From Laetmonice hystrix (taxonomy: Eukaryota): a stretch of 64,000 nt of DNA. A model generated the notes under the pieces. The model was not told the DNA's origin. It did no database searches and saw only the letters and a program-made list of their open reading frames with translations. Positions 24,001-64,000 of the stretch are shown piece by piece. Every line of letters begins with the position of its first letter. The stretch's first letter is position 1. The position numbers were made by a program, and so were the translations under genes. The stretch spans positions 12,588,001 to 12,652,000 of the forward strand of contig OZ249436.1 in NCBI GenBank assembly GCA_965235115.1, written 5' to 3'.

Positions 24001-27000
24001 TGATTCCACCGCTGGCCGGAAGGCGGCAGTGCAGTCAGCGCCGCCGCCGCCGCTTCAGTGAAGCTGCGCTGCACCCTGGTGTTTTCTGCCTGCAACATCT
24101 GTGTGTCATCTTTCTTTGTTTGTTTGTTACTTGGGGATGGGATATCTGATATAGAAAAGGCGTACAACGTCATTTGCCATTGTTAACTAAACCTTGACGG
24201 CAAACAGTCATTGGGACGACCTGACAACGTTGTTGGACGCTTACAGATGGTCTGTAGGGGACACAGATTAGATGGGAGTAGATGATAGACGAGACGTATG
24301 GCCTGCCTCCTGGACAATGAAGGCACGGAAACATGAAACATAAGGCGCCCCTATACTACTGGCTACTCTTGTATACAAGCAAACGGTACAGGGAGGCCAA
24401 ACAGTACAGGGAGGACTCGCTACAAGGTATACTGGCTGACCTACCTCCCAAGCGAACACTACAGTGAGGCCAAAGAGTACATTGAGGCCAAATAGTACAC
24501 TGTGGGGCCAAGCAGTGTGGGAGGCCAACCAGTAGGGTGAGAAGTCCCTACATCTTACCGGCTGGCCTATAGTAGACATGCAAACACTACAGTGAGGTTG
24601 TGGAAATGAAAGGTACAAGCCAGGAGCATCTAATGTGAAAATCTGGAGAAGATACTCAAATGGGAAGTGTACACATCACAAGCATATATCTGTAGCGAAC
24701 GTACGAGACCTATACGTTTGACAGTTATACATCTGGCCTAAGAATAATAATTTTGGGCGGGCGTAGTTTAAGTTGACGTATCAAAAATGTAGCCATTTTT
24801 CGCTTATCATTGCTTTAACCTGTCTCTCGCCACAGGTGCCTGCCAGCCCGGCCAGGTGTACGTGGTGATTCCACCGCTGGCCGGAAGGCGGCAGTGCAGT
24901 CAGCGCCGCCGCCGCCGCTTCAGTGGAGCTGCGCTGCACCCTAGTGTTTTCTGCCTGCAACATCTGTGTGTCATCTTTCTTTGTTTGTTTGTTACTTGGG
25001 GATGGGATATCTGATATAGAAAAGGCGTACAACGTCATTTGCCATTGTTAACTAAACCTTGACGGCAAACAGTCATTGGGACGACCTGACAACGTTGTCG
25101 GACGCGTACAAATGGTCTGTAGGGGACACAGATTATAAGAGAGTAGATGATATATAGACGAGACGTAGGGCCTGCCTCCTGGACAATAAAGGCATGGAAA
25201 CATGAAACATGAGGCGTCCCTATACTACTGGCTACTCTTGTATACAAGCAAACGGTACAGGGAGGCCAAACAGTACAGGGAGGAATCGCTACAAGGTATA
25301 CTGGCTGACCTACCACCCAAGCGAACAGTACAGTGAGGCCAAAGAGTACAGTGAGGCCAAATAGTACACTGTGGGGCCAAGCAGTGTGGGAGGCCAACCA
25401 GTAGAGTGAGAAGTCCCTACATCTTACCGGCTGGCCTATAGTAGCCATGCAAACACTACAGTGAGGTAGTGGAAATGAAAGGTACAGGCGAGGAGCATCT
25501 AATGTGAAAATCTGGAGAACATACTGAAATGGGAAGTGTACACATCACAAGCATATATCTGTAGCGAACGTACGAGACCTATACGTTTGACAGTTATACA
25601 TCTGGCCTAAGAATAATAATTTTGGGCGGGCGTAGTTTAAGTTGACGTATCAAAAATGTAGCCATTTTTCGCTTATCATTGCTTTAACCTGTCTCTCGCC
25701 ACAGGTGCCTGCCAGCCCGGCCAGGTGTACGTGGTGATTCCACCGCTGGCCGGAAGGCGGCAGTGCAGTCAGCGCCGCCGCCGCCGCTTCAGTGGAGCTG
25801 CGCTGCACCCTGGTGTTTTCTGCCTGCAACATCTGTGTGTCATCTTTCTTTGTTTGTTTGTTACTTGGGGATGGGATATCTGATATAGAAAAGGCGTACA
25901 ACGTCATTTGCCATTGTTAATTAAACCTTGACGGCAAACAGTCATTGGGACGACCTGACAACGTTGTTGGACGCTTACAGATGGTCTGTAGGGGACACAG
26001 ATTAGATGGGAGTAGATGATAGACGAGACGTAGGGCCTGCCTCCTGGACAATAAAGGCATGGAAACATGAAACATGAGGCGTCCCTATACTACTGGCTAC
26101 TCTTGTATACAAGCAAACGGTACAGGGAGGCCAAACAGTACAGGGAGGAATCGCTACAAGGTATACTGGCTGACCTACCACCCAAGCGAACAGTACAGTG
26201 AGGCCAAAGAGTACAGTGAGGCCAAATAGTACACTGTGGGGCCAAGCAGTGTGGGAGGCCAACCAGTAGAGTGAGAAGTCCCTACATCTTACCGGCTGGC
26301 CTATAGTAGCCATGCAAACACTACAGTGAGGTAGTGGAAATGAAAGGTACAGGCGAGGAGCATCTAATGTGAAAATCTGGAGAACATACTGAAATGGGAA
26401 GTGTACACATCACAAGCATATATCTGTAGCGAACGTACGAGACCTATACGTTTGACAGTTATACATCTGGCCTAAGAATAATAATTTTGGGCGGGCGTAG
26501 TTTAAGTTGACGTATCAAAAATGTAGCCATTTTTCGCTTATCATTGCTTTAACCTGTCTCTCGCCACAGGTGCCTGCCAGCCCGGCCAGGTGTACGTGGT
26601 GATTCCACCGCTGGCCGGAAGGCGGCAGTGCAGTCAGCGCCGCCGCCGCCGCTTCAGTGGAGCTGCGCTGCACCCTAGTGTTTTCTGCCTGCAACATCTG
26701 TGTGTCATCTTTCTTTGTTTGTTTGTTACTTGGGGATGGGATATCTAATATAGAAAAGGCGTACAACGTCATTTGCCATTGTTAACTAAACCTTGACGGC
26801 AAACAGTCATTGGGACGACCTGACAACGTTGTCGGACGCGTACAAATGGTCTGTAGGGGACACAGATTATATGAGAGTAGATGATATATAGACGAGACGT
26901 AGGGCCTGCCTCCTGGACAATAAAGGCATGGAAACATGAAACATGAGGCGTCCCTATACTACTGGCTACTCTTGTATACAAGCAAACGGTACAGGGAGGC

Positions 27001-27506
27001 CAAACAGTACAGGGAGGAATCGCTACAAGGTATACTGGCTGACCTACCACCCAAGCGAACACTACAGTGAGGCCAAAGAGTACAGTGAGGCCAAATAGTA
27101 CACTGTGGGGCCAAGCAGTGTGGGAGGCCAACCAGTAGAGTGAGAAGTCCCTACATCTTACCGGCTGGCCTATAGTAGCCATGCAAACACTACAGTGAGG
27201 TTGTGGAAATGAAAGGTACAAGCCAGGAGCATCTAATGTGAAAATCTGGAGAAGATACTGAAATGGGAAGTGTACACATCACAAGCATATATCTGTAGCG
27301 AACGTACGAGACCTATACGTTTGACAGTTATACATCTGGCCTAAGAATAATAATTTTGGACGGGCGTAGTTTAAGTTGACGTATCAAAAATGTAGCCATT
27401 TTTCGCTTATCATTGCTTTAATCTGTCTCTCGCCACAGGTGCCTGCCAGCCCGGCCAGGTGTACGTGGTGATTCCACCGTTGGCCGGAAGGCGGCAGTGC
27501 AGTCAG
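1..27506. repeat. Macrosatellite, left block: about 32 head-to-tail monomers of 865-869 bp (continues beyond window start)
   Basis: Near-identical sequence recurs every 864-869 bp (ORF-track starts 516, 1385, 2250, 3115...). Variants: A (869 bp, gatgatatatagacg), B (865 bp, gatgatagacg), C (ggagaatgaaggcacgg). Ends at ...gcagtgcagtcag 27506. Confidence 0.99.
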
Positions 27507-28181
27507 TAGGTTCCTATGAGGTCAGATGGCGCCAGGGTTTGTGGGTAGTTCCTATAACTATCGTCAGATGGCGCCAGGGTTTGTCTAGGTAGTTCCTATG
27601 ATTATCGTCAGATGGCGCCAGGAGTTGTAGTTCCTATGATTATCGTCAGATGGCGCTAGGGTTTGTCTAGGTAGTTCCTATGATTATCGCCAGAGGGCGC
27701 CAGGGGTTGTAGTTCCTATCATTATCGTCAGATGGCGCTAGGGTTTGTCTAGGTAGTTCCTATCATTATCATCAGATGGCGCCAGGGTTTGTGTAGGTAG
27801 TCCCTATAACTATCGTCAGATGGCGCCAGGGTTTGTGTAAGTAGTTCCTATGAGTATCGTCAGATGGCGACAGGGTTTGTCTAGGTAGTTCCTATGATTA
27901 TGGTCAGAGGGCGCCAGGGGGTTGTACTTCCTATCATTATCGTCAGATGGCGCTAGGGTTTGTCTAGGTAGTTCCAATGGTTTTCGTCAGATGGCGCCAG
28001 GGTTTGTGTAAGTAGTTCCTATGAGTATCGTCAGATGGCGACAGGGTTTGTCTAGGTAGTTCCTATGATTATCGCCAGAGGGCGCCAGGGGTTGTAGTTC
28101 CTATCATTATTGTCAGATGGCGCTAGGGTTTGTCTAGGTTGTTCCTATGGTTATCGTCAGATGGCGCCAGGATTTGTGTAC
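27507..28181 (+). repeat. 38-44 bp minisatellite, copy 1 (about 16 units), consensus tagttcctatgattatcgtcagatggcgccagggtttgtctagg
   Basis: Directly visible tandem units with long (44 bp) and short (38 bp, ...aggggttg) variants. Confidence 0.97.
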
Positions 28182-30575: not shown

Positions 30576-31349
30576 ATCGGTGTGGTAAAAACCCATTTTT
30601 CTCCGAGGCAAAGACATGAACGAATCATGAACGGGTAGGCCCACACTCGCTCTCTCTCGGATTTCGCCGTCTAAAGAGGAAGTAACTGGCGCCACCTGGT
30701 GAGTATTCGGGTAGGCCTACCTCTTTTTACCGAGGACTAACTAGTTACCGCGGACTACCGAGGATCACCGAGGATGGGAAGCACATAATACTTTTTGCCG
30801 AGGACTACCGGAGACGACCGAGCATCACCGAGGATGAGGCGCCAGAGGGCTAGGCGTGCATAAGCGATACCCCGGCCTCGATGTGGCTGCCCCCATGCAG
30901 CTGGGGAAGTAGTAGACTCTAGTAGCTAGGCCCCTACTGCCTATACTAGCCTATAGCATGAGTAGGCCATCCACTGACCTATTAGGCCAATTTAGGGCCT
31001 ATATATAGGCCTATAGGTCTACTGTAAATCAGGTATTTTTCGCGTGTTTTAATTTCGCGATTTTCGCGTTTAAAAAAACGCGAAATTAAGAAACGCGAAA
31101 TAAACACTTAGAATGGCGCATTTCCAGTAATATCCGCTTACAAAACAAAACAACACTTCATTACCTTCTTTAACTTGGCAGTTGCTTAGCTCTTGCTAAT
31201 TTGCGTGGTGGGGAATTAAAACTGTTGAATTTAATAGGCCCTAGGCCTACATGTCTTTACTTTTAGATGGGGATGCCATTGCCTAAACGCGAGTTTCTCT
31301 CCTTGGTAAAAACCACGTCTCCGACTGAATCCCCATTGACATGGAAGCA

Positions 31350-31491
31350 ATTTAAGGACGTCGCTAATTTAACATAGGCCTAGAAGTGAATGGTTGCTAG
31401 GTCGTTAACTTATTTTCGACCTAGCAACCCATTCACTTCTATGTTAAATTAGCGACGTCCTTAAATAAGGACCTTTAGTAAAACTGGCCCC
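31350..31491. mobile_element. Truncated palindromic MITE related to the one at 34488
   Basis: atttaaggacgtcgctaatttaacata...tatgttaaattagcgacgtccttaaat hairpin; right end tttagtaaaactggcccc resembles tttagtgagacgggcccc; left terminus missing. Confidence 0.7.
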
Positions 31492-32928
31492 GTCGACATA
31501 GGCCTAGAACATATAGCTAGGCCTACATATTCATATCGTATGCCCGGGCCCTGATTTCAATCACGACTTCATCGAGCACGCGCGCACAGGTCTGTCTGCA
31601 TTTATAAGTCCTAAAAGTTCTACACGCACAAAGTAGGTAGCTACACGTCTGCTGGGAATGACCCGTGTGTCCAATGATCAATAGACCTTCACTGCCGAAT
31701 TATTCACCAACCAAGTCCTTTTTAATCTCCACAAACCGGAGGCTGTAAATCAATGAACGTTATAGCAGATCATGAGCGAGATCAGATCCAATTTACCCCA
31801 CCAAACACAGTCCATGATGACGGCACACGGTCCAACATGAATGGTTAATGTCCGGCCATACAGCGGGTTTGATAACATGGGCCGAGTAATGGAGACATCA
31901 CAAAATACTGGACGGTGCAGCTCATTCCGCTACCCTCTAGATGTCCTAGAACGGTTATTCCTCCGTGGTAACCTCCAGACAAAATATTTGGGTAGGGGTT
32001 CGGGTTAAGGTCAGGGATAGGATAGGATAGGATAGGGATATGTTTTGGGGAGGTATAGGGACCGGGGTTAGGGGTTAAAGATAAGGTCAGGGTTAGGGAT
32101 CCTCAATTCTGACCAGATTTCATGGGGGTTAAGATACCACGCTAGATATATACCCAGAACTATAGACTGAAAGGTGCAATAGCCTGGTGTAAAACGCCTG
32201 GGCCAGATTATTCCACCATCTCGTCTAAGCCTGTATGCTTAGGTAAAGATAGTCTCAAGATATTTCAGAGCTATGCCTTGTTCAACGTTGTTCTCTGGAT
32301 GTCCAGGAATTATAGCCGGAGGTAGACCAATAGCCTGCCGTCAAAGGGTGGGGCCACATTATTCTCGTCTCGTCTAAGCCTGTATGCCTGTCAGAGCTAC
32401 AGTTGCGGATCTACCCGTATATGTAGGTAGTTCCTATGAATACCGTCAAATGACTTCAAATCACAAGTTCAGCCGTGTTTCAAGTCACAGTCAAGAAATT
32501 AGAGAAGGAAGGAAATGATAGAGTGGTATATATAGTTCACGGTAATGCAAACCTCTGACCCACTTAATCTGCGTGACGGAATCACATGTTTTTGGACATG
32601 CACTTTTGGGTCAAGTACTGCAAAGTGAAATCTCTGCTCTGTGGATGAAATCAAGTAGTCCGCAACATTTTCCGATGCGAGTATATGTATTTTTGCTTCA
32701 GATAAATGCAGTATTTTGATACTGTACTATAAGTATAGGCCTAACCACAGTGGCGGTTTTACTGTTAAGAATTTCCGTGACGGAATCACATGACGGAATC
32801 ACCAGTGCACTTTCATCCTTTTGCAATAGGCTAACAAATGAGCGAGTCATTATCTAAAAACGTTAAGTGTGGACCGCAGTATGGAGTGGAAATGGGGGAC
32901 CGATTGACCACCTACTCTGGTGTAAGGC

Positions 32929-35595: not shown

Positions 35596-38500
35596 CTGCA
35601 CCCTGGTGTTTTTCTGCCTGCAACATCTGTGTGTCATCTTTCTTTGTTTGTTTGTTACTTGGGGATGGGATATCTGATATAGAAAAGGCGTACAACGTCA
35701 CTTGCCATTGTTAACTAAACCTTGACGGCAAACAGTCATTGGGACGACCTGACAACGTTGTTGGACGCTTACAGATGGTCTGTAGGGGACACAGATTAGA
35801 TGGGAGTAGATGATAGACGAGACGTATGGCCTGCCTCCTGGACAATAAAGGCATGGAAACATGAAACATGAGGCGTCCCTATACTACTGGCTACTCTTGT
35901 ATACAAGCAAACGGTACAGGGGGGCCAAACAGTACAGGGAGGAATCGCTACAAGGTATACTGGCTGACCTAGCACCAAAGCGAACACTACAGTGAGGCCA
36001 AAGAGTACAGTCAGGCCAAATAGTACACTGTGGGGCCAAGCAGTGTGGGAGGCCAACCAGTAGAGTGAGAAGTCCCTACATCTTACCGGCTGGCCTATAG
36101 TAGCCATGCAAACACTACAGTGAGGTAGTGGAAATGAAAGGTACAGGCGAGGAGCATCTAATGTGAAAATCTGGAGAACATACTGAAATGGGAAGTGTCC
36201 ACATCACAACCATATATCTGTAGCGAACGTACGAGAGCTATACGTTTGACAGTTATACATCTGGCCTAAGAATAATAATTTTGGGCGGGCGTAGTTTAAG
36301 TTGACGTACCAAAAATGTAGCCATTTTTCGCTTATCATTGCTTTAACCTGTCTCTCGCCACAGGTGCCTGCCAGCCCGGCCAGGTGTACGTGGTGATTCC
36401 ACCGCTGGCCGGAAGGCGGCAGTGTAGTCAGCGCCGCCGCCGCCGCTTCAGTGGAGCTGCGCTGCACCCTGGTGTTTTCTGCCTGCAACATCTCTGTACT
36501 CTTTCTTTGTTTGTTTGTTACTTGGGGATGGGATATCTGATATAGAAAAGGCGTACAACGTCATTTGCCATTGTTAACTAAACCTTGACCGCAAACAGTC
36601 ATTGGGACAACCTGACAACGTTGTCGGACGCTTACAGATGGTCTGTAGGGGACACAGATTAGATGGGAGTAGATGATATAGGCCCTATAGACGAGACGTA
36701 TGGCCTGCCTCCTGGACAATAAAGGCATGGAAACATGAAACATGAGGCGTCCCTATACTACTGGCTACTCTTGTATACAAGCAAACGGTACAGGGAGGCC
36801 AAACAGTACAGGGAGGAATCGCTACAAGGTATACTGGCTGACCTAGCACCCAAGCGAACACTACAGTGAGGCCAAAGAGTACAGTGAGGCCAAATATAGT
36901 ACACTGTGGGGCCAAGCAGTGTGGGAGGCCAAGCAGTAGAGTGAGAAGTCCCTACATCTTACCGGCTGGCCTATAGTAGCCATGCAAACACTACAGTGAG
37001 GTAATGGAAATGAAAGGTACAGGCGAGGAGCATCTAATGTGAAAATCTGGAGAAGATACTCAAATGGGAAGTGTACCTACACATCACAACCATATATCTG
37101 TAGCGAACGTACGAGAGCTATACGTTTGACAGTTATACATCTGGCCTAAGAATAATAATTTTGGGCGGGCGTAGTTTCAAGTTGACGTATCAAAAATGTA
37201 GCCATTTTTCGCTTATCATTGCTTTAACCTGTCTCTCGCCACAGGTGCCTGCCAGCCCGGCCAGGTGTACGTGGTGATTCCACCGCTGGCCGGAAGACGG
37301 CAGTGCAGTCAGCGCCGCCGCCGCCGCTTCAGTGGAGCTGCGCTGCACCCTGGTGTTTTCTGCCTGCAACATCTGTGTGTCATCTTTCTTTGTTTGTTTG
37401 TTACTTGGGGATGGGATATCTGATATAGAAAAGGCGTACAACGTCATTTGCCATTGTTAACTAAACCTTTACGGCAAACAGTCATTGGGACGACCTGACA
37501 ACGTTGTCGGACGCTTACAGATGGTCTGTAGGGGACACAGATTAGATGGGAGTAGATCATATATAGACGAGACGTATGGCCTGCCTCCTGGACAATAAAG
37601 GCATAGAAACATGAAGCATGAGGCGTCCCTATACTACTGGCTACTCTTGTATACAAGCAAACGGTACAGGGAGGCCAAACAGTACAGGGAGGAATCGCTA
37701 CAAGGTATACTGGCTGACCTAGCACCTAAGCGAACACTACAGTGAGGCCCAAGAGTACAGTGAGGCCAAATAGTACACTGTGGGCCAAGCAGTGTGGGAG
37801 GCCAACCAGTAGAGTGAGAAGTCCCTACATCTTACCGGCTGGCCTATAGTAGCCATGCAAACACTACAGTGAGGTAGTGGAAATGAAAGGTACAAGCCAG
37901 GAGCATCTAATGTGAAAATCTGGAGAACATACTCAAATGGGAAGTGTACACATCACAACCATATATCTGTAGCGAACGTACGAGACCTATACGTTTGACA
38001 GTTATACATCTGGCCTAAGAATAATAATTTTGGGCGGGCGTAGTTTAAGTTGACGTATCAAAAATGTAGCCATTTTTCGCTTATCATTGCTTTAACCTGT
38101 CTCTCGCCACAGGTGCCTGCCAGCCCGGCCAGGTGTACGTGGTGATTCCACCGCTGGCCGGAAGGCGGCAGTGCAGTCAGCGCCGCCGCCGCCGCTTCAG
38201 TGGAGCTGCGCTGCACCCTGGTGTTTTCTGCCTGCAACATCTGTGTGTCATCTTTCTTTGTTTGTTTGTTACTTGGGGATGGGATATCTGATATAGAAAA
38301 GGCGTACAACGTCATTTGCCATTGTTAACTAAACCTTGACCGCAAACAGTCATTGGGACGACCTGACAACGTTGTTGGACGCTTACAGATGGTCTGTAGG
38401 GGACACAGATTAGATGGGAGTAGATGATATATAGACGAGACGTATGGCCTGCCTCCTGGACAATAAAGGCATGGAAACATGAAGCATGAGGCGTCCCTAT

Positions 38501-41500
38501 ACTACTGGCTACTCTTGTATACAAGCAAACGGTACAGGGAGGCCAAACAGTACAGGGAGGAATCGCTACAAGGTATACTGGCTGACCTAGCACCTAAGCG
38601 AACACTACAGTGAGGCCCAAGAGTACAGTGAGGCCAAATAGTACACTGTGGGCCAAGCAGTGTGGGAGGCCAACCAGTAGAGTGAGAAGTCCCTACATCT
38701 TACCGGCTGGCCTATAGTAGCCATGCAAACACTACAGTGAGGTAGTGGAAATGAAAGGTACAAGCCGGGAGCATCTAATGTGAAAATCTGGAGAAGATAC
38801 TCAAATAGGAAGTGTACACATCACAACCATAGGCCTATATCTGTAGCGAACGTACGAGACCTATACGTTTGACAGTTATACATCTGGCCTAAGAATAATA
38901 ATTTTGGGCGGGCGTAGTTTAAGTTGACGTATCAAAAATGTAGCCATTTTTCGCTTATCATTCCTTTAACCTGTCTCTCGCCACAGGTGCCTGCCAGCTG
39001 TTTTCTGCCTGCAACATCTGTGTGTCATCTTTCTTTGTTTGTTTGTTACTTGGGGATGGGATATCTGATATAGAAAAGGCGTACAACGTCACTTGCCATT
39101 GTTAACTAAACCTTGACGGCAAACAGTCATTGGGACGACCTGACAACGTTGTTGGACGCTTACAGATGGTCTGTAGGGGACACAGATTAGATGGGAGTAG
39201 ATGATAGACGAGACGTATGGCCTGCCTCCTGGACAATAAAGGCATGGAAACATGAAACATGAGGCGTCCCTATACTACTGGCTACTCTTGTATACAAGCA
39301 AACGGTACAGGGGGGCCAAACAGTACAGGGAGGAATCGCTACAAGGTATACTGGCTGACCTAGCACCAAAGCGAACACTACAGTGAGGCCAAAGAGTACA
39401 GTCAGGCCAAATAGTACACTGTGGGGCCAAGCAGTGTGGGAGGCCAACCAGTAGAGTGAGAAGTCCCTACATCTTACCGGCTGGCCTATAGTAGCCATGC
39501 AAACACTACAGTGAGGTAGTGGAAATGAAAGGTACAGGCGAGGAGCATCTAATGTGAAAATCTGGAGAACATACTGAAATGGGAAGTGTCCACATCACAA
39601 CCATATATCTGTAGCGAACGTACGAGAGCTATACGTTTGACAGTTATACATCTGGCCTAAGAATAATAATTTTGGGCGGGCGTAGTTTAAGTTGACGTAC
39701 CAAAAATGTAGCCATTTTTCGCTTATCATTGCTTTAACCTGTCTCTCGCCACAGGTGCCTGCCAGCCCGGCCAGGTGTACGTGGTGATTCCACCGCTGGC
39801 CGGAAGGCGGCAGTGTAGTCAGCGCCGCCGCCGCCGCTTCAGTGGAGCTGCGCTGCACCCTGGTGTTTTCTGCCTGCAACATCTCTGTACTCTTTCTTTG
39901 TTTGTTTGTTACTTGGGGATGGGATATCTGATATAGAAAAGGCGTACAACGTCATTTGCCATTGTTAACTAAACCTTGACCGCAAACAGTCATTGGGACA
40001 ACCTGACAACGTTGTCGGACGCTTACAGATGGTCTGTAGGGGACACAGATTAGATGGGAGTAGATGATATAGGCCCTATAGACGAGACGTATGGCCTGCC
40101 TCCTGGACAATAAAGGCATGGAAACATGAAACATGAGGCGTCCCTATACTACTGGCTACTCTTGTATACAAGCAAACGGTACAGGGAGGCCAAACAGTAC
40201 AGGGAGGAATCGCTACAAGGTATACTGGCTGACCTAGCACCCAAGCGAACACTACAGTGAGGCCAAAGAGTACAGTGAGGCCAAATATAGTACACTGTGG
40301 GGCCAAGCAGTGTGGGAGGCCAAGCAGTAGAGTGAGAAGTCCCTACATCTTACCGGCTGGCCTATAGTAGCCATGCAAACACTACAGTGAGGTAATGGAA
40401 ATGAAAGGTACAGGCGAGGAGCATCTAATGTGAAAATCTGGAGAAGATACTCAAATGGGAAGTGTACCTACACATCACAACCATATATCTGTAGCGAACG
40501 TACGAGACCTATACGTTTGACAGTTATACATCTGGCCTAAGAATAATAATTTTGGGCGGACGTAGTTTCAAGTTGACGTATCAAAAATGTAGCCATTTTT
40601 CGCTTATCATTGCTTTAACCTGTCTCTCGCCACAGGTGCCTGCCAGCCCGGCCAGGTGTACGTGGTGATTCCACCGCTGGCCGGAAGACGGCAGTGCAGT
40701 CAGCGCCGCCGCCGCCGCTTCAGTGGAGCTGCGCTGCACCCTGGTGTTTTCTGCCTGCAACATCTGTGTGTCATCTTTCTTTGTTTGTTTGTTACTTGGG
40801 GATGGGATATCTGATATAGAAAAGGCGTACAACGTCATTTGCCATTGTTAACTAAACCTTTACGGCAAACAGTCATTGGGACGACCTGACAACGTTGTCG
40901 GACGCTTACAGATGGTCTGTAGGGGACACAGATTAGATGGGAGTAGATCATATATAGACGAGACGTATGGCCTGCCTCCTGGACAATAAAGGCATAGAAA
41001 CATGAAGCATGAGGCGTCCCTATACTACTGGCTACTCTTGTATACAAGCAAACGGTACAGGGAGGCCAAACAGTACAGGGAGGAATCGCTACAAGGTATA
41101 CTGGCTGACCTAGCACCTAAGCGAACACTACAGTGAGGCCCAAGAGTACAGTGAGGCCAAATAGTACACTGTGGGCCAAGCAGTGTGGGAGGCCAACCAG
41201 TAGAGTGAGAAGTCCCTACATCTTACCGGCTGGCCTATAGTAGCCATGCAAACACTACAGTGAGGTAGTGGAAATGAAAGGTACAAGCCAGGAGCATCTA
41301 ATGTGAAAATCTGGAGAACATACTCAAATGGGAAGTGTACACATCACAACCATATATCTGTAGCGAACGTACGAGACCTATACGTTTGACAGTTATACAT
41401 CTGGCCTAAGAATAATAATTTTGGGCGGGCGTAGTTTAAGTTGACGTATCAAAAATGTAGCCATTTTTCGCTTATCATTGCTTTAACCTGTCTCTCGCCA

Positions 41501-44500
41501 CAGGTGCCTGCCAGCCCGGCCAGGTGTACGTGGTGATTCCACCGCTGGCCGGAAGGCGGCAGTGCAGTCAGCGCCGCCGCCGCCGCTTCAGTGGAGCTGC
41601 GCTGCACCCTGGTGTTTTCTGCCTGCAACATCTGTGTGTCATCTTTCTTTGTTTGTTTGTTACTTGGGGATGGGATATCTGATATAGAAAAGGCGTACAA
41701 CGTCATTTGCCATTGTTAACTAAACCTTGACCGCAAACAGTCATTGGGACGACCTGACAACGTTGTTGGACGCTTACAGATGGTCTGTAGGGGACACAGA
41801 TTAGATGGGAGTAGATGATATATAGACGAGACGTATGGCCTGCCTCCTGGACAATAAAGGCATGGAAACATGAAGCATGAGGCGTCCCTATACTACTGGC
41901 TACTCTTGTATACAAGCAAACGGTACAGGGAGGCCAAACAGTACAGGGAGGAATCGCTACAAGGTATACTGGCTGACCTAGCACCTAAGCGAACACTACA
42001 GTGAGGCCCAAGAGTACAGTGAGGCCAAATAGTACACTGTGGGCCAAGCAGTGTGGGAGGCCAACCACTGGAGTGAGAAGTCCCTACATCTTACCGGCTG
42101 GCCTATAGTAGCCATGCAAACACTACAGTGAGGTAGTGGAAATGAAAGGTACAAGCCGGGAGCATCTAATGTGAAAATCTGGAGAAGATACTCAAATAGG
42201 AAGTGTACACATCACAACCATAGGCCTATATCTGTAGCGAACGTACGAGACCTATACGTTTGACAGTTATACATCTGGCCTAAGAATAATAATTTTGGGC
42301 GGGCGTAGTTTAAGTTGACGTATCAAAAATGTAGCCATTTTTCGCTTATCATTCCTTTAACCTGTCTCTCGCCACAGGTGCCTGCCAGCTGTTTTCTGCC
42401 TGCAACATCTGTGTGTCATCTTTCTTTGTTTGTTTGTTACTTGGGGATGGGATATCTGATATAGAAAAGGCGTACAACGTCACTTGCCATTGTTAACTAA
42501 ACCTTGACGGCAAACAGTCATTGGGACGACCTGACAACGTTGTTGGACGCTTACAGATGGTCTGTAGGGGACACAGATTAGATGGGAGTAGATGATAGAC
42601 GAGACGTATGGCCTGCCTCCTGGACAATAAAGGCATGGAAACATGAAACATGAGGCGTCCCTATACTACTGGCTACTCTTGTATACAAGCAAACGGTACA
42701 GGGGGGCCAAACAGTACAGGGAGGAATCGCTACAAGGTATACTGGCTGACCTAGCACCAAAGCGAACACTACAGTGAGGCCAAAGAGTACAGTCAGGCCA
42801 AATAGTACACTGTGGGGCCAAGCAGTGTGGGAGGCCAACCAGTAGAGTGAGAAGTCCCTACATCTTACCGGCTGGCCTATAGTAGCCATGCAAACACTAC
42901 AGTGAGGTAGTGGAAATGAAAGGTACAGGCGAGGAGCATCTAATGTGAAAATCTGGAGAACATACTGAAATGGGAAGTGTCCACATCACAACCATATATC
43001 TGTAGCGAACGTACGAGAGCTATACGTTTGACAGTTATACATCTGGCCTAAGAATAATAATTTTGGGCGGGCGTAGTTTAAGTTGACGTACCAAAAATGT
43101 AGCCATTTTTCGCTTATCATTGCTTTAACCTGTCTCTCGCCACAGGTGCCTGCCAGCCCGGCCAGGTGTACGTGGTGATTCCACCGCTGGCCGGAAGGCG
43201 GCAGTGTAGTCAGCGCCGCCGCCGCCGCTTCAGTGGAGCTGCGCTGCACCCTGGTGTTTTCTGCCTGCAACATCTCTGTACTCTTTCTTTGTTTGTTTGT
43301 TACTTGGGGATGGGATATCTGATATAGAAAAGGCGTACAACGTCATTTGCCATTGTTAACTAAACCTTGACCGCAAACAGTCATTGGGACAACCTGACAA
43401 CGTTGTCGGACGCTTACAGATGGTCTGTAGGGGACACAGATTAGATGGGAGTAGATGATATAGGCCCTATAGACGAGACGTATGGCCTGCCTCCTGGACA
43501 ATAAAGGCATGGAAACATGAAACATGAGGCGTCCCTATACTACTGGCTACTCTTGTATACAAGCAAACGGTACAGGGAGGCCAAACAGTACAGGGAGGAA
43601 TCGCTACAAGGTATACTGGCTGACCTAGCACCCAAGCGAACACTACAGTGAGGCCAAAGAGTACAGTGAGGCCAAATATAGTACACTGTGGGGCCAAGCA
43701 GTGTGGGAGGCCAAGCAGTAGAGTGAGAAGTCCCTACATCTTACCGGCTGGCCTATAGTAGCCATGCAAACACTACAGTGAGGTAATGGAAATGAAAGGT
43801 ACAGGCGAGGAGCATCTAATGTGAAAATCTGGAGAAGATACTCAAATGGGAAGTGTACCTACACATCACAACCATATATCTGTAGCGAACGTACGAGACC
43901 TATACGTTTGACAGTTATACATCTGGCCTAAGAATAATAATTTTGGGCGGACGTAGTTTCAAGTTGACGTATCAAAAATGTAGCCATTTTTCGCTTATCA
44001 TTGCTTTAACCTGTCTCTCGCCACAGGTGCCTGCCAGCCCGGCCAGGTGTACGTGGTGATTCCACCGCTGGCCGGAAGACGGCAGTGCAGTCAGCGCCGC
44101 CGCCGCCGCTTCAGTGGAGCTGCGCTGCACCCTGGTGTTTTCTGCCTGCAACATCTGTGTGTCATCTTTCTTTGTTTGTTTGTTACTTGGGGATGGGATA
44201 TCTGATATAGAAAAGGCGTACAACGTCATTTGCCATTGTTAACTAAACCTTTACGGCAAACAGTCATTGGGACGACCTGACAACGTTGTCGGACGCTTAC
44301 AGATGGTCTGTAGGGGACACAGATTAGATGGGAGTAGATCATATATAGACGAGACGTATGGCCTGCCTCCTGGACAATAAAGGCATAGAAACATGAAGCA
44401 TGAGGCGTCCCTATACTACTGGCTACTCTTGTATACAAGCAAACGGTACAGGGAGGCCAAACAGTACAGGGAGGAATCGCTACAAGGTATACTGGCTGAC

Positions 44501-46849
44501 CTAGCACCTAAGCGAACACTACAGTGAGGCCCAAGAGTACAGTGAGGCCAAATAGTACACTGTGGGCCAAGCAGTGTGGGAGGCCAACCAGTAGAGTGAG
44601 AAGTCCCTACATCTTACCGGCTGGCCTATAGTAGCCATGCAAACACTACAGTGAGGTAGTGGAAATGAAAGGTACAAGCCAGGAGCATCTAATGTGAAAA
44701 TCTGGAGAACATACTCAAATGGGAAGTGTACACATCACAACCATATATCTGTAGCGAACGTACGAGACCTATACGTTTGACAGTTATACATCTGGCCTAA
44801 GAATAATAATTTTGGGCGGGCGTAGTTTAAGTTGACGTATCAAAAATGTAGCCATTTTTCGCTTATCATTGCTTTAACCTGTCTCTCGCCACAGGTGCCT
44901 GCCAGCCCGGCCAGGTGTACGTGGTGATTCCACCGCTGGCCGGAAGGCGGCAGTGCAGTCAGCGCCGCCGCCGCCGCTTCAGTGGAGCTGCGCTGCACCC
45001 TGGTGTTTTCTGCCTGCAACATCTGTGTGTCATCTTTCTTTGTTTGTTTGTTACTTGGGGATGGGATATCTGATATAGAAAAGGCGTACAACGTCATTTG
45101 CCATTGTTAACTAAACCTTGACCGCAAACAGTCATTGGGACGACCTGACAACGTTGTTGGACGCTTACAGATGGTCTGTAGGGGACACAGATTAGATGGG
45201 AGTAGATGATATATAGACGAGACGTATGGCCTGCCTCCTGGACAATAAAGGCATGGAAACATGAAGCATGAGGCGTCCCTATACTACTGGCTACTCTTGT
45301 ATACAAGCAAACGGTACAGGGAGGCCAAACAGTACAGGGAGGAATCGCTACAAGGTATACTGGCTGACCTAGCACCTAAGCGAACACTACAGTGAGGCCC
45401 AAGAGTACAGTGAGGCCAAATAGTACACTGTGGGCCAAGCAGTGTGGGAGGCCAACCACTGGAGTGAGAAGTCCCTACATCTTACCGGCTGGCCTATAGT
45501 AGCCATGCAAACACTACAGTGAGGTAGTGGAAATGAAAGGTACAAGCCGGGAGCATCTAATGTGAAAATCTGGAGAAGATACTCAAATAGGAAGTGTACA
45601 CATCACAACCATAGGCCTATATCTGTAGCGAACGTACGAGACCTATACGTTTGACAGTTATACATCTGGCCTAAGAATAATAATTTTGGGCGGGCGTAGT
45701 TTAAGTTGACGTATCAAAAATGTAGCCATTTTTCGCTTATCATTCCTTTAACCTGTCTCTCGCCACAGGTGCCTGCCAGCTGTTTTCTGCCTGCAACATC
45801 TGTGTGTCATCTTTCTTTGTTTGTTTGTTACTTGGGGATGGGATATCTGATATAGAAAAGGCGTACAACGTCATTTGCCATTGTTAACTAAACCTTGACG
45901 GCAAACAGACATTGGGACGACCTGACAACGTTGTTGGACGCTTACAGATGGTCTGTAGGGGACACAGATTAGATGGGAGTAGATGATAGACGAGACGTAT
46001 GGCCTGCCTCCTGGACAATAAAGGCATGGAAACATGAAACATGAGGCGTCCCTATACTACTGGCTACTCTTGTATACAAGCAAACGGTACAGGGAGGCCA
46101 AACAGTACAGGGAGGAATCGCTACAAGGTATACTGGCTGACCTACCACCCAAGCGAACACTACAGTGAGGCCAAAGAGTACAGTGAGGCCAAATAGTACA
46201 CTGTGGGGCCAAGCAGTGTGGGAGGCCAACCAGTAGAGTGAGAAGTCCCTACATCTTACCGGCTGGCCTATAGTAGCCATGCAGACACTACAGTGAGGTA
46301 GTGGAAATGAAAGGTACAGGCGAGGAGCATCTAATGTGAAAATCTGGAGAACATACTGAAATGGGAAGTGTACACATCACAACCATATATCTGTAGCGAA
46401 CGTACGAGACCTATACGTTTGACAGTTATACATCTGGCCTAAGAATAATAATTTTAGGCGGGCGTAGTTTCAAGTTGATCTACCAAAAATGTAGCCATTT
46501 TTCGCTTATCATTGCTTTAACCTGTCGCTCGCCACAGGTAGGCCTACCTGCCAGCCCGGCCAGGTGTAGGCCCTACGTGGTGATTCCACCGCTGGCCGGA
46601 AGGCGGCAGTGCAGTCCGCGCCGCCGCCGCCGCCGCTTCAGTATAGAGCTGCGCTGCACCCTGGTGTTTTCTGCCTGCAACATCTGTGTGTCATCTTTCT
46701 TTGTTTGTTTGTTACTTGGGGATGGGATATCTGATATAGAAAGGGCGTACAACGTCATTTGCCATTGTTAACTAAACCTTGACGGCAAACAGTCATTGGG
46801 ACGACCTGACAACGTTGTCGGACGCTTACAGATGGTCTGTAAGGGACAC
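35596..46849. repeat. Macrosatellite, right block: about 13 monomers as three copies of a 3391 bp 4-monomer higher-order repeat plus a decayed end
   Basis: Equivalent ORF starts at 35796, 39187, 42578, 45969 (spacing 3391). Every fourth monomer has the same 97 bp deletion. Same orientation as the left block. Confidence 0.99.
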
Positions 46850-47359
46850 CTCACTCAGCCATATTTATCAGCCTATTTTGTCAATGAGTGGGCTAGAACC
46901 TGGGCCAGAGGCGGCCTATAGGCCGACTTCAGCCCCCCCCCCCCCCCCCCGGAAAAAGTATCTTCCGACGCTAGATTCTGTTTGCCTAGGCCCCTCAATA
47001 ATACAATGGAAATTATCGAGCCACTCAATAATTCATGGAAATTACCGGCCTGGGGCTGGTTAGCTCGAGAAACTCTAACCCTCGAGCTCCCGAAGAGTCA
47101 ACAGTTCAGTCATCGACTGGCATGGTAAGCCTACAACGGGACTAAAAAATCTGATGTAGGCTACCTACGGTTAGGCCTACTCAGTTCCGTTGACTTCGTA
47201 TGTTACCATCTTACTCCAACAAGCTAGTTACCATCTTTGCTATCTAAATTACAACTTTATTATCTGGTCTCTAAACGTGACATAAGAACCAAATACAAAA
47301 CTATTAGGCTTATGCTATTGCGGTAATGATGCGTTATCCGGCGTTAATTTAGTTTACTG

Positions 47360-47856: not shown

Positions 47857-50608
47857 ATGTCGTCTAGTTTCGATGCAGCGGAACTTCAAGAGCTAGCCTT
47901 TACTGTCTACGGTGAGTTCACCCCATTAAACTATAGACTAGCATAGTCTCCTGTCCTGGGGTGCATTGCATATAAAAAATCGATCTCGGCCCGCTCCATT
48001 AAAATGCCCCGTTAGATAGTGGGGCCCTTTTTAGGTGCCTGTTAAAAAACAGCAGCTAACGGAAATTGTAGTGGCTGGGAATTTTTTATGCATTGCAACA
48101 GCCTGTTAACTGACCGTAAGTGGAGGATTTAACGAGCGGGACTTATTATGCAATGCACCCCAGGGTCCTAAATTCATTAAACACCCAGCTGTTCAAGACA
48201 CCAGACACATTAACTAATGTATAGAACATTATGATGTTGCGATATGAAATGGTTGGCTATGGCAGACCTTAGGATTTGAAAAGTGCAGGGGAGTGATTAA
48301 TAGCTCCCCTCAGCTACTCTAGGAGAGTGATCTGGAAGCTCCCTTCAACCGAGGATTTTTCATATTACGATGTCTGTGGTCTCAACAGGTGTTTCGACTG
48401 TTTCGAATAGCGCGTGGTTGACAATGTATCGCTTGACTGGGTGCGATGACGCCGATTGGTCGGACCAATGGTAACACGGTTCTCAAAGTGGAAAGCCGAT
48501 CAAATACGTTGTAGTATATTGTATTCGGGACAAAAGTACAACATGGCGGTGATCAAAAATACACGCTGGACTGATCAACATTATCATGGTGGGGCTGAAC
48601 CACCGGCGATCTAGAAACCCTCCAGCATGTTTGCTGAGGTGCGCTATTCAATAGCAAGTACCTACGGGCGCGTATTTTCGCTCCTCTCCTAAGCTGTTTA
48701 GGGGCGTGCGAGAGCAATCACGCCCGTCAAAACCTAAGGTCTGCTATGGTTGTCGAATGATTTTCCTTGCCACAAAGTGGCTTCAGAATATTTTATTTCT
48801 GTGACTTGACAATGTAGACCTCATCCGTGACATCCGTGACCCTGAGAAACCAGAAAACTTGGAGGAGTTGGAGGTTGTATATGAGGAAGGAGTCTCTGTA
48901 CAGGTCCTCAATGCTGACACCTGCCTCATCTCTATCGAATTCAAACCAACTGTGCCACATTGCTCTCTCGCCACCCTTATAGGTATGCAATTTAATTGAG
49001 ATAACCTTGTTATATATTTTAGTTTATATCATGAAAATGTTTAGAAACTGGAATGTAGATAAGATTTTCCTAACTTTTTAAATTATACTCTCTATGGCTT
49101 GAAGCATTCAAATTATATGATTATTGGTGTCATCAAATTTTAATTGCTAACATTTAGAATGTTACTGCGATGCCTACAGATAGGATGTCATGACTAAATT
49201 CACTCTGATATTCAATTTTCATTATATCTAGAATTGAAATTGTTTGCCACAGGACTTTGTTTGAGAGTGAAGTTAGAGAGGATGCTGCCACAAAAACACA
49301 AGGTATGACCATAGTTTGAAGACTTCAGTCTTTAGCTCCTTGAACATTGGAAAAACAACTTATTATTCTATAGACAAAGCTCTGTAAATTTGTATACATC
49401 TCAACAACAAGGTTTCAAAATTCTTACACTGGAAAATTTTATGTGCTATTTTGGTGTCGGAACTAAAGCTGTGTTCCAGAATTATTTTCTTGTATTTCGT
49501 AAAACCTTAAGGCAAAGTCTTGAGGTGGGACATAAAATGCTAAAATAAGTCGCTCACATTTAGGGATCTCATGTCATTCTTAAGTAATATGATAACAGGT
49601 AAATAAATACTGTATCTTAGAGCCTCCATCGACTTAGTCAGAATTGCCAGCATTCTCAAAGAAGAAGTAATCATTGTAGTGCTTCACTGTCTAGAAATTA
49701 GAAAATAGGCTTTGTTCTTATTAACCTACAACCAACTATAGTATTTGAGGGACTATAGGTTGTGACATTTTTACCCAAAATGTCTGCCTGTAACCTATAC
49801 TTTGACGTGACATATCTATGGATTTGTACAACCATCAACCATGCAACTTATATAATAGGCCCTAGGTCAAACAGTGCCCCGTAAGGCCTACCTGTGAACT
49901 TTGAACATTAGCCATGAGGCATACATTGATACGCAAGATATTGTGACTCACAGATTAATAGATGTGGAGATTCTGGTGGCAGGGTATAGGCCTACAGTGT
50001 GCGACCTATACTCTGCTGTGACCGATTTATGTATTATGTCAGGTGGGAAGGCCTCTGTGACCTATAGTCCCCTGTGACTTATTTTCCATACTTTTCTTTC
50101 AGTTGGACATATTCATCAAAGAGGGAACCCACTCTACAAGGGATGAAAGTATGTATACCATAAATAACGATAAAATATTCACTTTTGGTAAAGGGATCAC
50201 CTTTTGTTTTAGATATGTTTGGGTAAGAAATGCAAAGATAGTAGCCATCCTAATGTGGTAATAGTAAAATTGAAAATATGACAAAGTTACTGGCATTTGT
50301 TTTGCTCGAGTAATAATCATTTTCAGTTGGAAAGGGAATGCCGAGCATTTAATTGTTCATTAATCATGTAGTAATAGATATTAGTCATCTTGAATCTGTA
50401 AAAAAAGACACAGTAGAGCAATTATTATTACCGGTACCCCCATACTGCAGACCCTGATCTAGATTACAGTGATTATGCAAATTGTTTGCCCTTTTCCCTT
50501 GTTTTAGTAAACAAGCAAATCAATGACAAGGAACGGATATCAGCAGCGATGGAAAATCCAAATCTACGCAGTTTAGTAGAAGAATGCATTGCTGAACAGG
50601 ACATGTAA
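47857..50608 (+). CDS. CIAO2A: Cytosolic iron-sulfur assembly component 2A (MIP18 family, FAM96A), 138 aa
   Basis: Exons 47857-47911, 48818-48982, 49253-49302, 50103-50148, 50508-50608; all GT-AG, phase-compatible, 417 nt. Translation [39 protein letters not shown]...[73 protein letters not shown]... carries the FAM96A signature ([19 protein letters not shown]). Confidence 0.96.
47956..48163. mobile_element. Intronic MITE (Harbinger-like ends) in CIAO2A
   Basis: ctggggtgcattgcata ... tatgcaatgcaccccag terminal inverted repeat. Confidence 0.75.
48257..48749. mobile_element. Intronic MITE in CIAO2A
   Basis: ctatggcagaccttaggatttga ... tcaaaacctaaggtctgctatgg imperfect TIR, with further internal inverted similarity (gaatagcgc / gcgctattc). 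Confidence 0.7.
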
Positions 50609-53053: not shown

Positions 53054-53261
53054 TACTTAACCATCACAAATGTCACTTCGTACTGTTGCACTCAAGCATA
53101 TACCAGTAGTAATTTGATCATACATTAATACAAATTTTTGAATATGCATAAACAATACCTGTACTTTGTACTTTGAATGTTCTCTTACAAATTTTACTGC
53201 AGATCACTCCACATGCCATTCCTCCTGCATTTACACATTTGACAAATTTTTCTCCACAAAA

Positions 53262-56200
53262 TCACGATGCTTTGGCAGCCTTTCGGGCTCTGACAGACTC
53301 AATCAACAGTGGAGCATCCTTGTACACAACTGCAGGTCGCTGTTCACCGAGCAACTCGACATTTACTATGGTGCCTGGTTGACTTAACTCTGTTGGAACA
53401 TATGCAAACGCAATGCTTTGTTGTACATTGTATCCATAGGCACCAGATGTTGTCATGCCGACCACCTGAAAAAATTAAATAAGAGCAAACAAATATGATT
53501 TAATTAAAGAGAGATCAAAACATCAGTAACTTAAGCTATAATAAAGCAACTCCTAAAACACATAAATATATTATCAATCAAGAAGATGGGGTACATTAAT
53601 GAAACTAGTGATAAAAATCCCTTGGTGTTCATGTTCAATTCATGTATGCTAGTGGAACACTAAGCAAACACACCTTGTCCTCATGCCATATGGACTCATT
53701 CCCCTCTGGGTCAACATCAGTAGTATCTACTGTCAGGAAGACCAACTTGCGCTTCAAACCTTCAGCTTTAATTTGTTGAAGTGCTGCTTTGCCAATAAAA
53801 TCTGCGTCCTGATGGATAAAGTGAAAAAATATAATGTAACAATAGAATTCAGAGGTTTACTTGAGGTTACTGTATTGATTTTATTGGTTACCTATGGCAA
53901 ATTATTATATTTCAAAACATGTTTGAATGAAGTATTAATGAGGGGGATAACATCCAGTACTTTCAAGAGCAACATAAAATATAAACTATTGTTGGTCATG
54001 TTATTCAAAACATAGATGTATCCCAAAGTCTTCAGTCAAACCATAACATTTGGGTTCCAAATTCTGAGGTGTTTCTGTTTTGATTACTTTTAATTAAATT
54101 ATTGTTTTCTGTTATTGTACATACCTTCTTCATCTTGACAAAGAATCCCAGTCCAGCTTCCAGTGGGTTTTGGTCTGTGGTCATCTGCAATGTCGAAGTC
54201 ATTCAAGACCTCAAGGCCTTTGCAGTAGACTAGATGTCTTTAAACTATACATGTGTACTTAATTATGATGGCTAAGCTAGATTGTCTGCATGTTCCTTAC
54301 AGTTAATACATGTTGTAGTAATATTGTATCTTATCAGCACCACATAACACTACCTTACCTCAGCTCCCCACATCCTGAAACCTTTTTCAAGTCGCATTGT
54401 ATTCAGGGCATAAGTTCCAAAGTCTCCAACGTCGTACTCTTTTCCAGCCTCCAGAAGTGCATTATAAACTGGGGCCATATCTTTCAAGTCCATGTAAAGT
54501 TCCCATCCTAGCTCACCTGAGAGGAATAACAAGCACAAACATCTCACTCAGAAACAGTTTTTGTATCCACATGTGAAATATTCAAAATAACATGATTAGT
54601 TCCCCATTACTTCTACCAGTTTCAAACACAAGAATCATTAATTTTCGTAAATAAAAAATAAACAATGGTACTTGGGTAAGTACAGATTTTAAAGAAATTT
54701 CCATCTACCAGCAACTAGTCTCATAAAGCAACCGGCATTTTTGAGTTTTAGTCTTTACTACCTGTGTACGATATCCTGAAGGCCTTGACTGGTACCCCTG
54801 CTACTGTACAGTCCTGAGCCGTTAAGAATTGGAATGCCTCGTTGGAGACATCATTTGTCACCAACTTTGCCATGATGTCCCGAGACCGTGGTCCTGCCAA
54901 TCCCAACACACCATAGTCTTCTGTAACTGTGCGACATTTGACGTCAAAGTTTCCTAACCAGGCCATCTCTTCCATCCATCTATAAGATAATCACACCGAA
55001 AGGTCATCATAAACATTGGCTGTACCAGTGATAGAGGAAATAACAGGACTAAGGTCATCATAAACATTGGCTGTACCAGTGATAGAGGAAATAACAGGAC
55101 TAAGGTCATCATAAACATTGGCTGTACCAGTGATAGAGGAAATAACAGGACTAAGGTCATCATAAACATTGGCTGTACCAGTGAAGGTCATCATAAACAT
55201 TGGCTGTACCAGTGAAGGTCATCATAAACATTGGCTGTACCAGTGATAGAGGAAATAACAGGACTAAGGTCATCATAAACATTGGCTGTACCAGTGATAG
55301 AGGAAATAACAGGACTAAGGTCATCATAAACATTGGCTGTACCAGTGATAGAGGAAATAACAGGACTAAGGTCATCATAAACATTGGCTGTACCAGTGAA
55401 GGTCATCATAAACATTGGCTGTACCAGTGATAGAGGAAATAACAGGACTATAAATTAGGGGTTTATGTTTTCGAAGGGTGACCAATGCTTGGTATGTTCC
55501 TCAATCCTGGGTCGCAACCAAAATGAGAGGCACAATGTGTTTTTTGTGGGTTACAAAAGGTAAACCAAAACTTAATGTGTCAACTGCCCCTTCCCTGACT
55601 TTAAAAGGTCAACTGATCCTCTCCTAACTTTAAAGCTGGTTTGCAAAAGATCAGCTTGATGTGTAAAACAAACATTACTCTCCAGCAGCAGGAGGGAGTT
55701 GGTACATGTCAACACCACTTTGGTTGAACCAAATTATAAAACCATGCTAGACGAAAGTAACTACCTGTACATACATGTCTTGTGATTAGACCCTTATGCA
55801 GGCTCCACTATCACACTTGCCTGAGGTCATGGAATTCGTTGCTGGATCCAGTGATGCAGAAGAAAGTGTTTGGACTTGTCTGGGTAACGGTGAGCTCTGC
55901 ATAGACCCTGCCACTGGGTGTTAGCATATGGCTGATATTCATGTGATTTACCTGGATGGCACAGCAGTAGAAATGAAAGGATGCTACCAGATTAACAAAT
56001 TCAAGTTATAGGAAATGTAGAATAACACAAATGAACATCTGTCGAATCTGATTTTGTAGTTCCTATACAAATAGGTTTTTTTAAATATTTAATCGTGACA
56101 CGTTTATCTGCTAAATCTTGCTCAAGATAAATACAACTTGTCTTATCTGCTATGTAGAAGTGTAGCTGAGTGCAGAGATCAACTAAAAACTACATGGTTG

Positions 56201-63280: not shown

Positions 63281-64000
63281 ATTGGCAGTCTAGGCTAGAG
63301 TCTTAAGGGACGAGGCTCACGGTAACGACAGTCACACAAGTGACAAGAGATTGATATGCCCCGACTACGCAACTCAAACTGACATGTCAATATCATACAT
63401 AGGGCACTGCGAACTGGGTCAACGTGCCCTAGTTCCCCAGAAAGTTGACCTTTAGCTTTGACCCCTGCGCGGGCAGGCCACGCCCCACGCTGACCCCAGC
63501 TCACGTTCACAGAGGGCTTGCCCCCCACCTTTAGTAAACGCCTGGCTGTAGGCCTACACGTACACAATGCAGTATAAACATGTAACGGGATGAGGGACTT
63601 TTAGTTTTTACGACGGCAAGTATAGAACGAGATGCCTGGTGCATTAAATACGGCACCGAAACCGAAGGTGTCGTGGCGGATAACAAGGATTTTGAGAAAA
63701 AGAAAGCCTAGGCCAGCCGGGGCGCTCGGGAGGGGGGGGGGTAAGGCTGTCTATGCATACAATATATATGTTATAGGCCTAGACCATACTGTAGATATAG
63801 GCCTAGTATTTGCGGGGGGGGGCAGTGTGGGTGTGTATGGGGGGGGGGGGCAGGACTTACGTGGCAGGGGCGGATCTAGGGTCTATATTCAGGGGGGTCC
63901 GAGGGGGATCCAGCATAAAAAGGGCAAATCGAGGGGGGGGTCCGTTGTAAAACCAAAAGGCATTTTGGTTATAAAAAATTAAATTTGGCAAATTTGAGGG

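Follow-up and report, generated by a model that had tools for sequence, protein, structure and literature searches.

The stretch of Laetmonice hystrix DNA studied here, hereafter the window (64,000 nt; assembly GCA_965235115.1, contig OZ249436.1, positions 12,588,001-12,652,000, forward strand), carries a real, polarised, and stereotyped insertion signature in which a short GG/CC core, such as GGCC or GGCCC, stands between duplicated TA dinucleotides; the same signature is present in other DNA. Judging from the spectrum of the cores, we lean towards reading these scars as end-joining footprints of a putative TA-targeting cut-and-paste element with GGC...GCC ends and 3-base overhangs, and we consider it fairly probable that a transposon with GG ends, of whatever kind, was responsible. 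In the window, an 865-base satellite forms two arrays (1-27.5 kb and 35.6-46.85 kb), accompanied by a FAM96A-like gene and a minus-strand gene resembling that of dimethylglycine dehydrogenase (DMGDH).

Private insertions in satellite monomers

The insertions were identified by aligning the monomers of the two satellite arrays, the second of which is organised in higher-order repeats (HORs).

1..27507, + strand: satellite array 1, monomers of 862-869 bases, representing the pre-insertion state (monomer alignment)
35617..46850, + strand: satellite array 2, three 3391-base HORs of four monomers, a divergent terminal monomer, and a partial monomer (monomer alignment)

Monomer types are mixed without a fixed period in array 1, unlike the HOR of array 2. 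No difference separates HOR copies 2 and 3, and copy 1 departs from them at 4 of 3391 bases (window 35617-45790), so the three HOR copies of an insertion were not counted as independent events. The terminal monomer is a single copy and was taken from the assembly alone. When 45 monomers (43 whole and 2 partial, with the partial monomer at 1-688 left out) were aligned to their consensus, all seven private insertions of 2-7 bases outside microsatellites were found to read TA-x-TA, with GGCCC as the core in two cases, GGCC in two, CC in one, and no core in the remaining two. The alignment yielded the following events:

36679..36687 (copies 40070-40078 and 43461-43469): scar TA-GGCCC-TA, HOR monomer 2, one event
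36895..36898 (copies 40286 and 43677): TA changed to TATA, HOR monomer 2, an empty footprint or slippage
37074..37079 (copies 40465 and 43856): scar TA-CC-TA, HOR monomer 2
38830..38837 (copies 42221 and 45612): scar TA-GGCC-TA, HOR monomer 4
46539..46546: TA-GGCC-TA, terminal monomer, where sister monomers have TG
46567..46575: scar TA-GGCCC-TA, terminal monomer
46642..46645: TATA, terminal monomer, where sister monomers have TG

Every insertion string quoted in the first-pass annotation of this DNA (at 36679, 36895, 37074, 38830, 46539, and 46567, with the HOR copies) was confirmed, as was its statement that such insertions end in a duplicated TA; the event at 46642 is additional to its list. 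The annotation had also noted that the insertion at 46539 needs an extra TG to TA change, and the sister monomers bear this out there and likewise at 46642. The proposal that insertions are confined to TA sites held for five of the seven satellite events, in which, as in the inverted-repeat case described below, a pre-existing TA was duplicated; the other two (46539 and 46642) arose from TG, at consensus positions 752 and 838, and nonetheless end as TA...TA. Other indels in the alignment did not follow the TA-x-TA rule. They comprised single-base deletions, a complex loss of 2 bases, CGC gained and CGC lost within a microsatellite, a deletion of 91 bases that shortens one HOR unit (777 versus 868 bases), and an added C inside a TA at consensus position 684 in 4 of 45 monomers (37178, 40569, 43960, and 46471). 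The added C belongs to HOR monomer 2 and the terminal monomer, is found in other contig copies too, and may be ancestral. The polarity of an ATAT indel (TA versus TATATA, with 20 monomers short) was indeterminable.

Polarity of the insertions

All seven insertions lie in array 2, and no GG/CC insertion was present in the 31 aligned monomers of array 1, in agreement with the earlier suggestion that the satellite preserves the pre-insertion state. A tree was built of the 28 distinct monomers (from 43); it has no outgroup, and its bootstrap support was not fully settled. The carriers of the insertions formed three separate lineages, each insertion being private to one of them. Because the root can sit on only one lineage, the insertions on at least two lineages are gains, and the tree thus suggests that most of the satellite insertions are gains. 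Five GG/CC scars, all on the array-2 half of the tree, compare with about 116 substitutions (branch lengths summed by hand). A comparison within an inverted repeat supplied one further case:

31375..31382: left-arm TA-GGCC-TA facing a bare TA on the right (inverted repeat 31350-31466; arm comparison)

On this comparison, the inverted repeat holds an independent polarised scar, the eighth beside the seven satellite insertions.

A random insertion of 4-7 bases has a 1.8% chance of reading TA-x-TA, compared to 35% for a tandem duplication. Since tandem duplications so often take this form, the empty cases could be slippage, and the TA-only insertions at 36895 and 46642 do fit slippage or tandem duplication. 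Four of six GG/CC cores had no copy within 40 bases on either strand; given this lack of a local template and the 1.8% random rate, the GG/CC cases could not be slippage. The same result weakened the first-pass suggestion of a locally templated insertion process. Contigs of three runs of one sample were compared over 45970-54990 and showed heterozygous single-nucleotide polymorphisms and length differences in unique DNA of net +6, +10, and -6; this comparison was swamped by the high-copy satellite, and among the indels listed (12 of 165) all were in the monomer.

Enrichment in the non-satellite DNA of the window

Against an order-2 Markov background of 22,365 non-satellite bases, TAGGCCTA occurred 17 times versus 0.46 expected and was the top 8-mer after poly-C; local Markov simulation gave a mean of 0.75 and a maximum of 3 in 300 runs. 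The k-mer enrichment that the first-pass annotation had anticipated is therefore present. TAGGCTA/TAGCCTA (12 versus 3.9 expected) and TAGGGCCTA/TAGGCCCTA, with GGGCC/GGCCC cores (3 versus 0.36), were also in excess, while TAGGTA/TACCTA and TAGCTA, with GG, CC, and GC cores, showed no enrichment in this DNA. A weaker excess of CCGG and CAG/CTG cores suggests that other TA elements may also leave scars.

The 32 scars of the window were clustered, with 8 gaps of at most 30 bases versus 1.4 expected, and tracked the CpG observed/expected ratio (rho 0.47, P=0.002). Motif scanning located three clusters:

30712..31525: scars grouped in CpG-rich non-satellite DNA, among them the chain TAGGCCCTAGGCCTA at 31235
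47157..47179: small cluster (GGC, CC, and GGCC cores) upstream of the FAM96A-like gene
62304..63805: scar cluster on the 5' side of the DMGDH-like gene, with 13 scars on 165 TA in 61.8-64 kb

Of the three places where TAGGCCTA had been called conspicuously frequent, 30.7-31.5 kb and 62.4-63.8 kb indeed hold six copies each; 46.9-47.2 kb holds only one, together with TAGGCTA and TACCTA, so the cluster there is weaker than claimed. Scarred TA numbered 28 of 621 in CpG-rich zones, near gene starts or intergenic, and 4 of 960 within the gene bodies, for odds of 11 (P=2e-8). These zones were drawn after the data were seen; adding the scar-free zone at 28.2-30.6 kb to the CpG-rich zones gave odds of 8.8. 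No scars were found in 2,946 bases of DMGDH-matched stretches. The interval 28220-30575 is occupied by a 2.4-kb structure with inverted arms of about 480 bases that are 91% alike and an internal duplication; it has 0 scars on 168 TA and is perhaps a young element.

The signature in metagenome loci

Metagenome contigs were scanned for three motifs within 30 bases, which yielded at least 120 loci. Tandem repeats and the match itself were masked and 12 loci were dropped (telomere-like, GC above 55%, or one duplicate), leaving 108 loci of 334 kb. These loci were chosen for the motif, at least one of them is a bacterial contig (L076), and several may come from the same species; the scarcity of coding frames, the TA-flanked inverted-repeat elements, and a reverse transcriptase point to a eukaryotic origin. 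No alignment between the loci and the window was present among the best 220 of 393 (the longest), and a 32-base word of the satellite had no match in the metagenome contigs.

Within the masked loci, GGCC cores numbered 180 versus 3.7 expected, GGC/GCC cores 140 versus 32, and GGGCC/GGCCC cores 21 versus 1.5. There was no excess of GGGC/GCCC (4 versus 6.4 expected), GG/CC (113 versus 110), or G/C cores (566 versus 617); GGGCCC was absent and GC occurred 83 times versus 69 expected. Products of single-base decay were common (AGCC/GGCT 35 versus 8; GACC/GGTC 27 versus 7). This order of cores, with GGCC above GGC/GCC, GGC/GCC above GGGCC/GGCCC, and no GGGC, is nearly that of the window. Further copies of the motif were present in 68 of the 108 loci, and at distances above 1 kb from the match TAGGCCTA had a density of 3.2 per 10 kb, compared to 0.32 in prokaryote and 0.14 in viral controls (80 and 17 loci, respectively, matching the same triple-motif pattern). 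By eye, and among the matches listed, the prokaryote and viral matches were mostly local tandem repeats.

Two clean indels between repeat pairs add GGCC (L017:2040) and GGGCC (L031:69) at TA. The base after TA was C or T in 75% of half-sites versus 50%, an R-TA-Y target bias with which four of the five TA sites in the satellite agree; a target rule based on palindromic flanks was not significant in these loci (P=0.16), and the link to CpG was weak (rho 0.09, P=0.035). The idea that a scar becomes a new hot spot was considered for three chains with shared TA in the window but was not supported, as the metagenome loci showed no excess of chains. Two loci gave separate observations: a Tc1-like element at L043:2152-3138 has scars at both of its TA ends, and both arms of an inverted repeat at L048:296-713 contain the same double TAGGCCTA.

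A proposed cut-and-paste origin for the scars

We infer a transposon origin because the core spectrum fits the overhangs of element ends. The putative element would be Tc1/mariner-like, would insert at TA with duplication of the TA, and would prefer accessible, unmethylated germline DNA as its target. Excision would cut three bases inside the element ends, which are predicted to read GGC...GCC, and would leave 3' overhangs of terminal bases on both flanks. Pairing of the last two overhang bases (GC with GC) would give GGCC as the favoured joining product; alignment of all three bases with a central mismatch would give GGC or GCC; a one-base overlap of the overhangs would give GGGCC or GGCCC; and trimming would leave CC or nothing. 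GGC overhangs cannot give GGGC, and the predicted order of products is the observed order, which together suggest GGC...GCC as the ends. Were the G-runs at the two ends independent, as G-run termini or untemplated addition would make them, about 12 GGGC/GCCC cores would be expected, compared to the 4 seen (P=0.006).

Several results weigh against this model. GGGGCC/GGCCCC cores, which GGC ends do not predict, were found 6 times versus 0.3 expected in the masked loci, and the blunt product GGCGCC was found there 0 times. Independent G-runs allow GGGGCC and correctly predict the number of GC cores (about 86 versus the 83 seen). Of the 109 indels of 2-14 bases that distinguish repeat copies in the metagenome loci, only 20 were of the TA type, several of these in telomere-like repeats, and scars in these loci were chained no more often than by chance (4/178 versus 331/21,027). 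Of the three terminal-monomer insertions, two took the place of TG, for which even targeting gives a probability of about 0.0014 (a post hoc figure); Tc1/mariner chemistry should duplicate TG, and the TG to TA...TA events are thus unexplained by it. Excision scars in grasses, for which the element is known, are described as varied in the excerpts of PMC4423477, whereas those of the window are stereotyped with one palindromic product dominant.

Finally, no inverted-repeat element of the form TA|GG...CC|TA was found in the approximately 36 kb of non-satellite window or in 389 kb of metagenome loci (120 loci). The first-pass annotation had pointed to a TA-targeting transposon with GG...CC ends; the TA duplication, the polarity of gain, the enrichment, and the core spectrum agree with that proposal, while the element itself was not recovered. 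The TA-flanked elements found in the search end instead in CAG, CAC, or CGA (window 57189; L006, L032 twice, L034, L043, and L073), and Harbinger-like elements with 3-base duplications were encountered as well. Young long elements can break short-read contigs, so the lack of a parent in the metagenome loci is not proof, and about 0.4 Mb is too little DNA to demonstrate the absence of a GG...CC parent family. No transposase domain was detected in the 29 of 105 long open reading frames of the loci that were scanned. The window element with CA-type ends is:

57189..57367: TA-flanked inverted-repeat element with CAG...CTG ends (inverted-repeat search)

Its ends make this element a candidate origin for the weaker CAG/CTG scars but not for the GGCC ones. 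One candidate parent, at 62425-62631, has a perfect 16-base inverted repeat formed by two mirrored scar chains in the arrangement TA|GGC...GCC|TA. It was not accepted: no second copy exists in the window or the metagenome loci, its folding z was -1.5, its one match to a viral contig was uninformative, and mirrored motif pairs arise by composition (29 of 1277 pairs). This inverted repeat is probably due to chance.

Alternative explanations

Terminal transferases are G/C-biased, and germline breaks are promoter-directed. [quoted passage not shown] We regard this as unlikely. Every enriched core, GGGGCC/GGCCCC included, has the form G(n)C(m), the number of GC cores matches the prediction for independent addition, the scars are concentrated in CpG-rich DNA, and several hundred of them occur without a GG-ended parent while CA-ended elements are present. 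The shortage of GGGC/GCCC relative to prediction speaks against it, and the lack of any GG/CC or G/C excess is hard to reconcile with free addition at two independent ends.

A related and tentative reading, which we also give a minor chance, has no persistent parent: a germline process common to several eukaryote lineages (at least two) would cut accessible R-TA-Y sites and insert an almost invariant GGCC palindrome flanked by duplicated TAs, at times with a change of TG to TA. Such a process could be a hit-and-run transposase that rarely leaves copies or a host nuclease plus polymerase, and if it is real it would constitute an undescribed, sequence-stereotyped insertion signature with roughly one event per 10-25 substitutions in exposed DNA.

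It is doubtful that the scars are footprints, trimmed to variable G(n)C(m), of a Harbinger-related PHIS-type element that has G-run ends, duplicates TA, and would be the animal equivalent of fungal PHISTA. PHISTA elements do make TA duplications and have GGGGG starts in the excerpts of PMC12730594, which would allow GGGGCC; GG-ended PHIS elements are described as common in animals (PMC4482050, in part); and GGG-ended, CWG-duplicating elements lie in the window at 61879-62137 and 34490-34866. These last are MITEs ending in GGGCCC with CAG or CTG duplications, NuwaI-like by the description excerpted from PMC4482050, and a nested Harbinger-like MITE (34614-34851) sits inside the one at 34490-34866. 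The animal groups described in the same excerpts duplicate AT, ANT, CWG, TNA, or TWA, not TA, however; G-run ends predict GGGC and GGGCCC, neither of which is enriched; and excision of mPing/Pong is reported as frequently precise in the excerpts of PMC4423477.

It is very unlikely that TAGGCCTA is a selected promoter or transcription-factor motif, with the satellite cases incidental. The preference for CpG-rich zones over gene bodies, in zones drawn post hoc, would favour this idea, but the motif arose in one insertion step within the satellite and within an inverted-repeat arm, length variants with altered spacing likewise show enrichment, and products of single-base decay are frequent. Selection could retain some scars after they form. 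The suggestion that the long state is ancestral and was shortened by deletion between two TAs, or that the insertions are slippage duplications, gains something from the rate at which tandem duplications mimic the pattern, from the TA to TATA and ATAT cases, which may be slippage, and from the rootless tree, but is extremely improbable and, for the GG/CC cores, largely refuted by the gains on at least two of three private lineages and by the cores without a local template.

Other features of the window

The 865-base satellite is very high-copy, with single contigs at depths of tens of thousands versus about 50 for unique DNA, depths that probably correspond to more than a thousand monomer copies, and could be a major, possibly centromeric, satellite. 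Adjoining array 2 is a 1.7-kb inverted-repeat element (33869-35605) that ends in CAGGG...CCCTG and contains nested MITEs. At its right end it agrees with the final bases (3' end) of the satellite monomer, a match that hints that the satellite may have originated by tandem amplification of a unit including an element end of the CAGGG...CCCTG type. Two minisatellite arrays of 44/38 bases occupy 27521-28177 and 32930-33863; the former lies directly against the end of satellite array 1, the latter against the inverted-repeat element beside array 2. Protein similarity identified two genes:

48820..48981, + strand: exon of a FAM96A/CIAO2A (MIP18 family) gene
53265..60442, - strand: DMGDH-like gene (matched exons)

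A DMGDH exon shared 70-73% identity with proteins from annelid, millipede, brachiopod, nemertean, and lancelet, a result that does not single out a phylum among the bilaterian invertebrates. At 55000-55430, a 51/31-base minisatellite starts at the edge of a DMGDH-like exon, apparently repeating the end of that exon together with the splice donor. Rfam gave no match across 26-64 kb of the window.

Significance of the scars

With five GG/CC scars for about 116 substitutions, TA-GG(C)CC-TA scarring is a major source of insertions where it is active, and would account for the window's top non-repeat 8-mer. GGCC palindromes near promoters can be mutation scars instead of binding sites, and the scars would preserve a trace of earlier activity and of accessible germline chromatin after the element itself had vanished. 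From the core spectrum one can predict the ends (GGC...GCC) and the overhang of the element to be sought; if no parent exists, the scars would be a new repair signature.

Comparison with known systems

No description of a TA-GGCC-TA scar was found in the literature searched; a GGC-ended, TA-duplicating animal family may be recorded in Repbase Reports, most subscription journals, or bioRxiv supplements, which were outside the search, and no table of terminal sequences was found in the portions of PMC5753468 and PMC4455052 used. According to the excerpts of PMC4482050, animal PHIS elements (ISL2EU, Pangu, NuwaI/II, and PIF/Harbinger) have GG or GGG ends and the duplications listed above, a rule from which the window departs, its duplicated unit being TA (GTG-TA-CAC and GTG-TA-CGT). 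Sailor has a TA-containing target and an invertebrate range, with mostly TATA duplications and starts of GT or CC (PMC8533490, in part); as excerpted, neither group gives TA-GGCC-TA from a TA site (PMC4482050, PMC8533490). PHISTA, which is Harbinger-related and reported from rust fungi only (PMC12730594, section 3.1.4), is the only family in the literature compared that combines TA duplication with GG...CC ends, and at least 10 of the 15 PHISTA rows in its supplement start with GGGGG. These G-run ends predict cores that are not enriched in the window or the loci, and footprints are not described in the sections of PMC12730594 consulted.

The Stowaway/mariner elements of grasses offer a further parallel. 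Comparison of homologous sites revealed footprints of 1-4 terminal bases within duplicated TAs (PMC1925063, PMC4423477, both in part), and the footprint form and the repeated use of one site resemble what we observed. Natural excisions in rice were heterogeneous, with 8 of 94 perfect and with deletions and filler common, in the same excerpts of PMC4423477. In Sleeping Beauty and mariner, nicks fall three bases within the element and the donor keeps 3' overhangs of 3 bases, which nonhomologous end joining converts to footprints between duplicated TAs, as set out in the excerpts of PMC7827188. The TA target, the TA duplication, and the few extra bases between the TAs are shared with the window. 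The differences are that the window cores are GG/CC-based and would need GGC ends, that two events started from TG, that no element with such ends turned up in the window or the loci, and that the window scars form a dense natural germline signature instead of a laboratory product. The scars appear to work like Tc1/mariner footprints, a likeness of footprint form short of a class assignment.

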